Shown here: one piece after another, positions 7,585-12,356 of the stretch
How positions within the stretch are numbered: position 1 is the stretch's first letter
Layout of the letters: each line of letters opens with the position of its first letter
IMG/VR virus record: IMGVR_UViG_2896607866_000010
Reading direction: 5' to 3' (one strand)
From: a virus
Lineage: Duplodnaviria > Heunggongvirae > Uroviricota > Caudoviricetes
DNA length: 29,033 nt
Translations under genes and position numbers: made by a program
Notes under the pieces: generated by a model
What the model saw: only the letters and a program-made list of their open reading frames with translations
What the model was told of the DNA's origin: nothing
Databases searched by the model: none

Positions 7585-8902
7585 TCTCGATGTCCTCGTC
7601 GGTAATGGATGCCCCGATGCCGGTTACGTCAGAATTTTCTCGCAAATCAGTCATAGCGGCTTTCAGTGTCATCAGACCATCACCCAGCGCCGTACTGATT
7701 GCGTTGGTGGTGTTTAACGCCACCGTTGAGCGATCGACATCAGACATTTGCCAGAGCGGGTTAAACTCAAACGTGAAATCGTCCGGCAGCGGCTTGCCAA
7801 GTTCCGAACGATGCATGATGTCCAGTATCCGCCGCACCGGAAGACGTAAACGCCTCTCCTGCAACGAACTGATGCGATCGTAATAGTTGGCAAGGTCTGC
7901 ATCACCGGTAGAAAATCCTTTCGGGGACTGTCCGAACAACCGCACCAGTGGGATACCAACAGCGCCACTAATCTGTTCTGCAAACTGCGAAAGGATGTCA
8001 TCCAGACCACTGAAGCTGTACTGATGGGTTTCAAACTTATCCCGCGAGTCCATGAGCGTCATGCCTTCATTACTCTGGAACTGTCGAATCAGGTCGATAT
8101 TCTTCAGCAACGCTTCATACGCAGGACCACCAAGTGCGATAAGCTCGCGTAGCTTCTCCACGCTGTAGGTACGCAAATGCGCCTTGTAGACCAGCTGCGC
8201 CGCGCCGACAGTAGCGCTGTCGAACGCGGTAAGACGATCCCAGATACGCTCTACAACCGACATTCCCCATTCGTTCTCGGTCATCTTCTGCTGAAATGGC
8301 AACGTGACGCCATCAAAGCGAATCAGGCGACTGTGATGAATGCGCCAGGCAGGAATTCCCGTTGCTGTGGTCACCACATCGTAAAACTCAGGTTTACCCA
8401 GGTCCGGCCCCATATCTTTAATGCGGCGGGTCAGTGCCGGGTCGACCATCCAGCGGTCGAGCGGGAGAATCCCCTTAAACTTGCCCTTACCGATGGTTTC
8501 GGGTCGCAGCGGGGTCATTGGTGCCTGCCCCTCAATCATGATGAAACCCACCGCGCCGCCGTAGAGGCGCGACCATTTCAGCACGTCATTCAGCGCATCC
8601 CAGATTTGCAACTCATCCAGTTGTGATTCGAGAATGCCACGATCTTTTGCATCAATTTCCGAAGTGATGCGAATGCCTTTGCGGGTCATATCATCCGGGA
8701 TAGCATCGACTGCTTCGCCGATGATCCAGGATGAACGATAGGACCATTCCACCAGCATGCGGTTACGACTGGTGAAATTAGCCCGGTAGGTGGATGCTGA
8801 GTGCTGGTTAGGTGTCTGCATCCCTACGCGGGCAATAAAATTCTCATAACCATCAGCTGTGGCCTGCACAGTTCGCCGCAGGGCTTGTTTGTTTCGTGCC
8901 AT
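7436..8902 (-). CDS. phage portal protein
   Basis: 488-aa ORF immediately downstream of the terminase large subunit with TGATG stop/start overlap; size and acidic C-terminal tail typical of portal proteins. Confidence 0.7.
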   Translation of the reverse strand: MARNKQALRRTVQATADGYENFIARVGMQTPNQHSASTYRANFTSRNRMLVEWSYRSSWIIGEAVDAIPDDMTRKGIRITSEIDAKDRGILESQLDELQIWDALNDVLKWSRLYGGAVGFIMIEGQAPMTPLRPETIGKGKFKGILPLDRWMVDPALTRRIKDMGPDLGKPEFYDVVTTATGIPAWRIHHSRLIRFDGVTLPFQQKMTENEWGMSVVERIWDRLTAFDSATVGAAQLVYKAHLRTYSVEKLRELIALGGPAYEALLKNIDLIRQFQSNEGMTLMDSRDKFETHQYSFSGLDDILSQFAEQISGAVGIPLVRLFGQSPKGFSTGDADLANYYDRISSLQERRLRLPVRRILDIMHRSELGKPLPDDFTFEFNPLWQMSDVDRSTVALNTTNAISTALGDGLMTLKAAMTDLRENSDVTGIGASITDEDIENAEDEAPPGIGEPDDEPQEPSGGNPVSNQPTQDSEGGRRHRKWSLRWFK

Positions 8903-9642
8903 CAGGCCTGTCTCCCCAGCTGTTCCCAGATATCCAGCGATGTATCGATTGGCGCGAAGGCCATAATGAATGCATCAGCAACGTTTGGTGACGGTATCTC
9001 GCGTTTTGCGAGGTCTTTTTTACTTTCGACCATCACACGTCCGTTACGGTCGAAATCACGATGAGGTGTTGTCAGTTCCAGTTTCAGCTTTTCAAGCAAC
9101 GGACAACGAGAATCTATGCTGATCAGCTCATCCACAGGATACTGTTCTCCGTTGTTAATGGCGTTAAACGTATTTCTGAAACGGTCAGCCACCAGCCACC
9201 ATGCCTGAGCCTTAAGATTTGCGAAAAAGTCTTTGTTGGGGATGCCGTTGTACTCGTCATCTGGCTCATGCACACCAGCACCGGCGTTAAACCTCTGGTA
9301 ATTCACACGTCGCGCGTATGCGTTCTCGCTCTTCCGGTCAGCGTTAATTTCAGAGAATTTAGCACCGGCAGACGCACCAACACCGATAGAGTCGTAAACA
9401 ATATCTGCTTCACGCTCCAGCGCCGCCTGATAAGTACGCTGGCAGCTCTTCAGTAATTCATCTTCTTTGGCCTTCCATTCGTCGGCCCAGAAAACAACGG
9501 ATCCGTGACGGTAAACGTTAGCGCACTTATCTGTACCACTGTCAGCCACGTCAAAGCCAATACGCTTTCTTCCACTGGGTTCGAAATTTAACGTTTTGTG
9601 CGCATCCACTGCGGCTTCTATCCAAGACAGTTTGATGATTGC
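8902..9642 (-). pseudogene. terL: terminase large subunit, C-terminal (nuclease) fragment, separated from its N-terminal part by IS2
   Basis: Contains the GFDVADSGTDKCA-type nuclease motif; frame continues into the IS2 end; in frame with the N-terminal fragment once IS2 plus one 5-bp duplication is removed. Confidence 0.75.
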
Positions 9643-9653
9643 TGGATTTGCCC

Positions 9654-10559
9654 CTATATTTCCAGACATCTGTTATCACTTAACCCATTACAAGCCCGCT
9701 GCCGCAGATATTCCCGTGGCGAGCGATAACCCAGCGCACTATGCGGATGCCATTCGTTATAATGCTCGAACGCCTCTGCAAGGTTCTTTGCTGCCGTTAA
9801 CCCGTCTGGTTTGGGCATGATACTGATGTAGTCACGCTTTATCGTTTTCACGAAGCTCTCTGCTATTCCGTTACTCTCCGGACTCCGCACCGCCGTGTTC
9901 TTCGGTTCAAGTCCCAACATCCGGGCGAACTGGCGTGTTTCATTAGCCCGGTAGCATGAACCATTATCCGTCAGCCACTCCACTGGAGACGACGGAAGAT
10001 CGTTGCCGAAGCGGCGTTCCACCGCTCCCAGCATGACGTCCTGTACTGTTTCACTGTTGAAGCCGCCGGTAGTCACCGCCCAGTGCAGTGCCTCACGATC
10101 ACAGCAGTCCAGCGCGAACGTGACACGCAGTCTCTCTCCGTTATCACAGCAGAACTCGAACCCGTCAGAGCACCATCGCTGATTGCTTTCTTTCACGGCT
10201 ACTCTGCCTGTATGTGCCCGTTTCGATGGCGGTACAGCAGGTTTTCGCTCAAGCAACAGCGCATTCTGGCGCATGATCCGGTAAACACGTTTGGCATTGA
10301 TCGCAGGCATACCATCAAGTTCTGCCTGTCTGCGAAGCAGCGCCCATACCCGACGATAACCATACGTGGGCAGCTCTCCGATAACATGGTGTATACGGAG
10401 AAGCACATCCGTATCATCAGTGTGACGACTGCGGCGGCCATCCATCCAGTCATCGGTTCGTCTGAGAATGACGTGCAACTGCGCACGCGACACCCGGAGA
10501 CAACGGCTGACTAAGCTTACTCCCCATCCCCGGGCAATAAGGGCGCGTGCGCTATCCAC
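9654..10559 (-). CDS. insD: IS2 transposase OrfB (InsD)
   Basis: 301-aa ORF with IS3-family DDE motifs; A6G slippery site at 10559-10565 on the minus strand. Confidence 0.9.
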
Positions 10560-10882
10560 TTTTTTGCCCGTCCATATTCAACGGCTTCTTTGAGGAGTTC
10601 ATTTTCCATCGTTTTCTTGCCGAGCAGGCGCTGGAGTTCTTTAATCTGCTTCATGGCGGCAGCAAGTTCAGAGGCAGGAACAACCTGTTCTCCGGCGGCC
10701 ACAGCAGTAAGACTTCCTTCCTGGTATTGCTTACGCCAGAGAAATAACTGGCTGGCTGCTACACCATGTTGCCGGGCAACGAGGGAGACCGTCATCCCCG
10801 GTTCAAAGCTCTGCTGAACAATTGCGATCTTTTCCTGTGTGGTACGCCGTCTGCGTTTCTCCGGCCCTAAGACATCAATCAT
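10517..10882 (-). CDS. insC: IS2 transposase OrfA (InsC)
   Basis: 121-aa ORF starting [12 protein letters not shown] at ATG 10882. Confidence 0.85.
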
Positions 10883-10973
10883 CTGTTCTCCAATGACTAG
10901 TCTAAAAACTAGTATTAAGACTATCACTTAAATAAGTGATACTGGTTGTCTGGAGATTCAGGGGGCCAGTCTA

Positions 10974-11641
10974 ATTGCCGCATCATCATCAGACTCCGGA
11001 ACGCCCTCATACACATGTTTAAAACCATCCGGATCACGGCGTCGCGCCGCGTCGATAACCTTAAGCATGGTGTCAGACAGAAACGGATTTTCGTCATAGT
11101 TAATTTTGCGGATGAGAGTGCCTTCGGGCGGATCAACAACGAAGTTGCGCCAGACGAAATCAGTAACAAGTCCGGGGTTGAATATGAACCAGCATTCCGA
11201 ACCCTCTTTACGGATCGTTGGCTCCAGAATTTTCCACTGGTATTCCGTCAGTGCGTGGGCTTCTTCCAGCCACAACACATCGATCCCCTCCAGTGACTTA
11301 ATTTCTTCGATGTTGCGCCATAATCCATAAAAAACAAATTCCGAGCCAGTAACCCGGTTAATGATTTTGTTGTTCAGAATACGGAAACGGTGCCGCAGAC
11401 CAAACCTGTCTATCTGAATTTTGAGCAGGGTATACACCGACTCTTCGATTTTATTCTGGATCTGACGGGCACAACAAAAACGCAGGGTGTATTTATTCGA
11501 CAGAAATATGGCAATGCCAGCGGCATCCCATGATTTTGACGATGACCGACCACCATAAAGCACTTTGTTACGTGCCCGCATAGTCCAGAAACTACGTAAA
11601 GCCGGATTCAGCGTCGGTTTGGATGTCAGAGTAGAAGTCAT
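10974..11641 (-). pseudogene. terL: terminase large subunit, N-terminal (ATPase) fragment interrupted by IS2
   Basis: Walker A-like LYGGRSSSKSWD motif; start ambiguous (ATG at 11641, 11659 or 11668, all overlapping the terS 3' end); frame runs into IS2 at 10973. Confidence 0.7.
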
Positions 11642-12356
11642 TGAGGTCACGCTCTCCATTGCCATCATCAATACCTGCATCACGGCGAAGACGATCAGCC
11701 TCCAGAGACACCTTATCAGTGGCGGCCTTGCGGTAGGCTGTATCAGCAAATATTTTTCCTACCGTCGCAAGCGTGCCAACGATGGACTCAATACGAACTG
11801 TATTGCGCATCATTGCTTTCTCGGCGGCGCTGATATTTTCAATCAGCATCTTCCTTTCCTGGTCCCCATTAGCATCTTCCAGCGACACCAACCACCGACC
11901 AATATTCTCTGCAGCGACAAGGTTGTTAGCACGAAGGCGAAATAATTCGTCCTCGAGCGTCAACGCTTTAGCGTCCTCTATCACCTCATCTTTGAGCAGA
12001 AGGCGACGGGCATAACCACCGTGTTTTAATGCCTGCTGGTTACCGGGTTGGAATGGGTTAGTCGGGGGATCGGTACGCATTCCGCGTATCGGTTTCGTAT
12101 CCGGTGTAGATTCTGTTTTTAGTTGCGTACTTTTTTGTGTAAGGCCAGTAATGGCAGGCTTTCTGCTGGTACGCACTTTCCTTTTTTGCGTACCATTTTT
12201 GCAAACCTGCGTACCGCCACTGCGTGCCCAACCAAGCTTTTTGGCCCTCTTCCTGATAGCCCCTTCTGTAACGCCGTATTTCTCGCCTATATCACGGAGG
12301 CTAAGGACTCCGGCCCGGTATGCCGATTCGATGGCCTCCCAGTCCGGTTTTGCCAT
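11592..12356 (-). CDS. terS: terminase small subunit
   Basis: 254-aa ORF with SD AGGAAG; N-terminal HTH-like segment; directly upstream of and overlapping terL. Confidence 0.65.
   Translation of the reverse strand: MAKPDWEAIESAYRAGVLSLRDIGEKYGVTEGAIRKRAKKLGWARSGGTQVCKNGTQKRKVRTSRKPAITGLTQKSTQLKTESTPDTKPIRGMRTDPPTNPFQPGNQQALKHGGYARRLLLKDEVIEDAKALTLEDELFRLRANNLVAAENIGRWLVSLEDANGDQERKMLIENISAAEKAMMRNTVRIESIVGTLATVGKIFADTAYRKAATDKVSLEADRLRRDAGIDDGNGERDLNDFYSDIQTDAESGFT

Follow-up and report, generated by a model that had tools for sequence, protein, structure and literature searches.

How a phage packaging gene came to lie in two pieces is the question raised by the 29,033-nucleotide stretch of DNA analysed here (IMG/VR virus record IMGVR_UViG_2896607866_000010, Caudoviricetes; the whole stretch is referred to as the window). 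In the window, the gene for the large terminase subunit (terL) is interrupted by a copy of IS2, an insertion sequence (IS). The original prediction, made from the letters alone, had read this as a simple and probably recent insertion that left an intact ATTGC duplication, inactivated packaging, and could be undone by precise excision. Our analysis indicates that a single simple transposition of IS2 into the terL gene of a temperate, myovirus-type prophage is almost certainly the correct explanation, and no evidence contradicting a simple insertion was found in this analysis.

IS2 occupies positions 9643 to 10973 on the minus strand and is exactly 1331 bp long, with its transposase genes co-directional with terL. 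It is flanked by perfect 5-bp direct repeats, ATTGC at 9638-9642 on the left and ATTGC at 10974-10978 on the right (GCAAT on the gene strand, terL nt 664-668 for the left copy). An identical pentamer at two fixed positions has a chance probability of 1/1024, and a 5-bp duplication is expected of IS2. Other copies have duplications of the same length: CTCAG for the second IS2 of the window, CCAGC for a copy in Escherichia coli FDAARGOS_943, and GATCC for a copy in Shigella dysenteriae Sd197. The duplicated target comprises codon 222 and two bases of codon 223, and IS2 splits terL at codons 222/223, at the boundary between the ATPase and nuclease domains. A minus-strand open reading frame (ORF) ending in ...PESDDDAAIRLAP followed by a stop codon enters IS2 from the right, and an ORF containing ...AIIKLSWIEAAV... 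exits it on the left on the same strand. Deleting 9643-10978 (1336 bp, the element plus one repeat) in silico joined both minus-strand fragments in frame with no stop, and the reconstructed junction read ...PESDDDAAIIKLSWIEAAV... / ...DDDAAIIKLSWIEAAV..., as the original prediction had anticipated. The reconstructed gene spans 1431 nt (476 aa) from an ATG at 11668, or 467 aa from the start at window position 11641 that is used for intact alleles by the Prokaryotic Genome Annotation Pipeline (PGAP) and lies 27 nt downstream. The extent 8902-11668 first assigned to the gene thus begins at a real in-frame ATG, which some annotations use, whereas the PGAP start gives the shorter form.

We compared the reconstructed gene with uninterrupted alleles. 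Its 1431 nt aligned to the intact terL genes of E. coli FDAARGOS_944 and VL40, both annotated as "PBSX family phage terminase large subunit", in one ungapped piece with 100% coverage and 99.9% identity. The differences from the FDAARGOS_944 gene amounted to 2 nt and 1 aa, with 0 indels, and a full-length allele was present in 118 of 5426 complete E. coli genomes. At the protein level, WP_038341124.1 ('PBSX family phage terminase large subunit') is one residue off the reconstructed protein (D431 versus A), and the exact 467-aa sequence is present in uninterrupted form on at least 1000 public contigs, in records named from Shigella sonnei and "MULTISPECIES Enterobacteriaceae". S. dysenteriae Sd197 is uninterrupted at the site used in Shigella flexneri and carries a single ATTGC there.

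These alignments bear directly on whether IS2 marks a rearrangement, in which two IS2 copies recombined, or IS2 caused a deletion or inversion, and terL pieces that had not been neighbours were joined. Other IS copies do mark rearrangements in the window, where an IS600 and an IS1, both without duplications, sit at deletions of about 14.8 kb and about 4.7 kb, respectively. The terL IS2, in contrast, lies within a perfect duplication, and in intact alleles the sequences on either side of it join directly, without a missing or an added base. We rejected the reading of IS2 as a scar of recombination on the perfect duplication and the ungapped alignment of the reconstructed gene, and regard a rearrangement as highly improbable. 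The same comparison addresses the proposal that terL was already a pseudogene or was damaged further, such that removal of IS2 would give no working gene. Some relatives do show such damage. In S. flexneri SFBU1023, the nuclease fragment is out of frame after a 7-bp loss of one CAGCCAC tandem unit (window 9186-9192), and the cement gene has lost 17 bp (window 5209-5225), although an assembly error is possible for both. CP026803.1 has an IS1 transposase gene where the N-terminal terL fragment would be, and no such fragment is called there. The window reconstruction, however, is 100% identical to the intact protein on the contigs mentioned above and to the protein reconstructed from FDAARGOS_943. 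Further damage, to which we assign a negligible probability, is therefore refuted for the window and holds only for some relatives. Since the window copy carries no further damage, removing IS2 and one repeat regenerates, residue for residue, a terminase that is intact elsewhere. A simple insertion thus accounts for the locus, with neither stops or frameshifts in the reconstructed frame nor broken flanks.

The identity of the element was assessed against the known features of IS2, namely a length of about 1.3 kb (1331 bp) and imperfect terminal inverted repeats, a right one (IRR) of 41 bp and a left one (IRL) of 42 bp. In window orientation, the element begins with TGGATTTGCCCCTATATTTCC and ends with ...GGGGGCCAGTCTA. 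The IRR lies at 9643-9683 and the IRL end at approximately 10932-10973, and the imperfect terminal inverted repeat was recovered by a repeat finder. The 41 bp at 9643-9683 are exactly the IS2 IRR oligonucleotide whose sequence is printed in PMC3219604. The element contains orfA (InsC-like; 10517..10882, minus strand; 121 aa from an ATG; Pfam HTH_Tnp_1 at 2.4e-19) and an uninterrupted orfB (9654..10559, minus strand; 301 aa) with the DDE/rve catalytic domain (Pfam rve at 1.1e-18, rve_3, and HTH_21). An A6G slippery heptamer for the -1 programmed frameshift that yields the OrfAB transposase is located at 10559..10565 (minus strand; IS position 409), and the role of A6G in IS2 frameshifting has been described (PMC3219604). 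PGAP labels a near-identical copy 'IS3-like element IS2 family transposase, programmed frameshift', and thousands of E. coli records contain elements annotated 'IS3-like element IS2 family transposase' that share at least 99% identity with the window IS2. Compared with the terL copy, the second IS2 of the window has 3 nt changed, the IS2 of FDAARGOS_943 also 3 nt, and that of SFBU1023 5 nt. The terL copy therefore shows no substantive differences from the IS2 of E. coli and Shigella (IS3 family, IS2 group), and with intact ORFs, ends, and frameshift site it looks functional.

As judged by profile and structure searches with its sequence, the interrupted gene is a phage large terminase. The reconstructed TerL matched Pfam Terminase_3 over residues 33-222 (E = 4e-38) and aligned to Sf6 gp2 (PDB 4idh) over residues 10-449 (E = 9e-79), with the Walker-A-like motif GGRSSSKS aligned to GGRGSGKS of Sf6 gp2. 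The nuclease half (residues 212-449) aligned to the Sf6 gp2 nuclease-domain structures 5c10 and 5c12 and to 8dkr (1.3e-66), and the alignments to isolated nuclease-domain structures (5c10 and 8dkr) begin at query residue 212-213. These matches assign the N-terminal fragment to the ATPase and the C-terminal fragment to the nuclease, as had been proposed; the Pfam Terminase_3C match to the reconstructed protein was sub-threshold (20.8 bits versus a cutoff of 26.7). Window TerL and Sf6 gp2 have in common the layout of an ATPase domain followed by an RNaseH-like nuclease domain, but the similarity is moderate, not close, and the window gene is split by IS2 at the domain boundary. The phages differ as well: Sf6 is a P22/Sf6-like podovirus, whereas the window represents a myovirus-type prophage related to vB_EcoM-689R2 and SEN34-like phages. 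In a phage collection search, vB_EcoM-689R2, SEN34, yong1, and Omnitron had the head and portal module in common with the window, whereas their nucleotide sequences did not match this terL, and these relatives offered no intact terL reference closer than the E. coli prophages. Its location is also that of a terL in a packaging module, with a terS-like gene on one side and the portal gene on the other. A functional terL would be one unbroken coding sequence for a single polypeptide; here it is split by IS2, and the window terL is a pseudogene, not a functional member of the family.

What the split gene encodes was then read from its fragments. The truncated N-terminal ORF (10958..11641, minus strand) is 227 aa long and consists of 223 native residues, which make up the ATPase domain, followed by the IS-encoded residues RLAP and a stop inside IS2. 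The C-terminal fragment (8902..9642, minus strand) comprises codons 222-467 plus the stop codon, which overlaps the start of the portal gene (ATGA), and encodes the RNaseH-like nuclease domain. The interrupted gene thus encodes only a 227-aa ATPase stub, and the nuclease half has no start codon of its own. With this arrangement no functional terminase holoenzyme would be made and DNA packaging would be abolished; of the earlier claim that the insertion inactivates packaging, the reduction of the product to a stub is what the gene structure displays, and the packaging defect is its predicted consequence. A polar effect of IS2 on the portal and head genes downstream is probable as well.

The nuclease half can also be reached from within the element. 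A predicted hybrid ORF of 255 aa (8902..9669, minus strand) starts at an ATG in the right end of IS2 and runs, after nine IS-encoded residues (MSGNIGANP), in frame into the nuclease fragment. It exactly matches ABF02953.1 of S. flexneri 5 str. 8401 and EID61277.1 of M90T, and genome projects have labelled it 'putative bacteriophage protein'. The exact hybrid ORF was found on 71 contigs and the exact 227-aa stub on 205 public contigs, all named S. flexneri. N-terminal forms of 222 aa that end at a contig edge were found on at least 1000 plus 320 contigs, as would be expected of draft assemblies that break at IS2. It could be argued from these observations that the split is tolerated and retained, with the ATPase stub or the nuclease domain of the hybrid ORF still serving the host: each half is still an undamaged ORF in the window, the gene is broken at a domain boundary, and the two products are conserved on the contigs just given. 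This conservation, however, is explained by the short time since the insertion and by clonal descent, relatives have suffered a frameshift or lost a fragment, and no convincing ribosome-binding site was seen by eye upstream of the hybrid ATG. The hybrid ORF as a real gene was accordingly kept only as a low-probability candidate, and we consider a retained function very unlikely.

Three minor points sit less easily with a single insertion that simply silenced the gene, though none contradicts it. The nuclease half does lie in the predicted hybrid ORF, and the packaging loss and the polar effect are both what we infer from gene structure. In addition, the IS2 of SFBU1023 and of "E. coli" ECMA0423, at the same site, is 5/1331 nt off the window copy. 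That difference is about the divergence of the flanks; it fits shared descent with mutation or gene conversion, without strictly excluding a second insertion at the identical site.

We next asked how widely the occupied allele is shared. As an exact 41-mer, the left junction was present in S. flexneri SFBU1023 and "E. coli" ECMA0423. The identical terL::IS2 junction was found in 8401, M90T, and other complete genomes, and the proteins of strains 301 (AAN42309.2) and 2457T (AAP16182.1) end in the same AAIRLAP junction. Seven long NCBI records have the same gene order around terL::IS2, the closest to the window being UGYT01000001.1 with 2 mismatches over 5768 bp. The occupied allele is common to S. 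flexneri genomes of serotypes 2a and 5 and to more than 1000 draft contigs, and the insertion is ancestral to much of S. flexneri. ECMA0423 has the terL IS2 without the IS911 found at 12418 in the window, indicating that the terL insertion has a wider distribution than at least one of the window's other lesions and predates it. The description of the insertion as probably recent therefore needs qualification: the window copy indeed carries no secondary damage, and "recent" is fair only in that sense, but the allele is spread across S. flexneri 2a and 5 genomes and draft contigs, and relatives have decayed further. Among complete E. coli genomes, a search for the occupied allele returned only FDAARGOS_943 as covering the query; it was rejected as a carrier of the same allele, since direct alignment places its IS2 at a different site. 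A literature search on IS2 in the terminase of S. flexneri prophages returned no paper discussing the terL::IS2 allele. From annotation the allele is already known, as both fragments have been in public S. flexneri genomes for years.

These observations are best explained by the following course of events. As an IS3-family element, IS2 transposes in two steps, through a figure-of-eight and a minicircle, and duplicates a short stretch of the target when it inserts (PMC3219604). The insertion seen here dates from an ancestor of the S. flexneri lineage to which the window belongs. IS2 entered terL by this copy-out-paste-in route, via a minicircle and with OrfAB made by the -1 frameshift at A6G, at the target GCAAT (terL nt 664-668); duplication of the target left the gene split between its ATPase and nuclease domains. 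The recipient was a prophage that sits between ybhA/modC and pgl, as in Shigella and in genomes resembling enteroinvasive E. coli, and bears an ipaH gene for a type-III effector. The terL insertion belongs to the ordinary decay of Shigella prophages driven by IS elements, as one of its steps.

Insertions into this terL have occurred more than once. E. coli FDAARGOS_943 (NZ_CP065615.1) carries the same prophage at the same chromosomal locus, 99.8% identical. Its terL contains an IS2 in the same orientation, 215 bp from the S. flexneri site and inside the ATPase domain, with the duplication CCAGC (window 11189-11193; IS2 region 12711-14051 of the extracted locus L001), and its reconstructed TerL is identical to the window reconstruction. 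In S. dysenteriae Sd197 (CP000034.1), two elements lie 17 bp from each other in the nuclease half, an IS600 with the duplication AAC and an IS2 in the opposite orientation with the duplication GATCC (3691-6440 of the extracted locus L008, approximately window 9500-9517). Across at least three lineages, this 1.4-kb gene has thus been hit independently and cleanly, three times by IS2 and once by IS600. A crude post-hoc Poisson calculation confined to the prophage gave P of about 0.002-0.03, resting on guessed totals (14 IS insertions overall and 8 in the other lineages), which are not real counts and come from no census; the Sd197 prophage was viewed over 6.8 kb only. The recurrence could reflect a regional preference of IS2, selection for packaging-dead prophages, or coincidence under ascertainment bias. 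That the terL of the ipaH-carrying prophage is a non-random IS target, either as a regional hotspot for IS2 or because selection favours prophages that can no longer package and so keep the effector gene locked in the chromosome, is a tentative proposal and rather unlikely.

The genes beside terL are undamaged. Upstream, a gene for a 254-aa protein (11592..12356, minus strand) overlaps the terL start and is intact and identical to WP_001118113.1. It is presumed to encode the small terminase subunit solely from its position, and a Pfam search with the protein returned no match. Downstream, the portal gene (7436..8902, minus strand; Phage_portal_3/DUF1073, with Phage_portal_3 at 3e-106) is likewise intact, its product being identical to WP_000113499.1. 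The head-morphogenesis, cement, and capsid genes that remain, like the terS-like and portal genes, are all intact and identical or nearly so to those of FDAARGOS_944.

Lesions elsewhere were mapped by aligning the window to the largely intact prophage of FDAARGOS_944, which extends from int beside ybhA/modC to an ipaH gene beside pgl. The prophage end in the window carries a gene for a type-III-secreted, IpaH-type E3 ubiquitin ligase with LRR_TTSS and NEL domains (1-1812, plus strand), and PGAP names its counterpart in FDAARGOS_943 and FDAARGOS_944, where it adjoins pgl, ipaHb. An IS600 without duplication (2611-3874; 1264 bp, 98.6% identical to annotated IS600) lies at the junction of the ~14.8 kb deletion, in which neck, tail, and baseplate genes are gone relative to FDAARGOS_944. 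An IS911 with the duplication CTT (12418-13666) lies just upstream of the terS-like gene. At 14470/14480, a deletion of ~970 bp with 9 unmatched junction bases has removed most of the holin, lysozyme, and Rz genes, and what is left is a 106-aa ORF that matches only positions 1-44 of the holin profile. Between this deleted lysis cassette and the late-regulation region is a tRNA cluster (15304-15613, minus strand) of Gly-TCC, Thr-TGT, Arg-TCT, and a CAT-anticodon tRNA, the last assigned to Met by ARAGORN and to Ile by PGAP. A second IS911 (20961-22209, duplication TTT), 100% identical to the first, sits in a replication-region gene, and the second IS2 (24663-25993, duplication CTCAG) is in the early region. 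A variant IS1 without duplication (27688-28455; 99.9% identical to copies annotated 'IS1 family transposase' and 91% to IS1A) lies next to the ~4.7 kb deletion, which took out xis, gam, part of recE, and the N-terminus of the integrase, whose C-terminus alone is left (28456-29033). The window thus contains six IS elements (two IS2, two IS911, one IS600, and one IS1) plus three deletions.

The prophage is dead for several independent reasons, in agreement with its earlier description as cryptic: besides the split terL, the tail, lysis, and int-N/xis regions are deleted and five other IS copies are present. These losses also limit what precise excision could achieve. Arithmetically, excision of IS2 with one repeat restores the frame, as was claimed. 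Biologically it is improbable because copy-out-paste-in, the route by which IS3-family elements transpose, regenerates the donor, and precise excision occurs rarely, as a side reaction, and is strongly raised only when IEE and transposase act together (bioRxiv 10.1101/2023.06.07.543989). Because the tail, lysis, and int-N/xis regions are deleted, restoring the terL frame would not revive the phage. Pseudogenisation led by IS elements, and ipaH copies amid prophages and pseudogenes, have been described in Shigella (PMC8072062, PMC9046306), and the window is a specific instance of this decay, not a new phenomenon.

Taken alone, terL::IS2 carries little weight: the pathogen is rich in IS elements, and an insertion into one of its prophage genes is textbook material. 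Its value lies in its placement. The junction marks a lineage cleanly: S. flexneri genomes share it, the site is empty in S. dysenteriae Sd197 and in 118 E. coli genomes, and S. sonnei records carry the intact protein. IS2 in terL also explains why draft assemblies break inside the gene. The insertion also dates one of the steps by which a prophage that carries ipaH was progressively immobilised, and the recurrent IS insertions in terL offer a way to ask whether packaging genes are preferentially inactivated in Shigella evolution.

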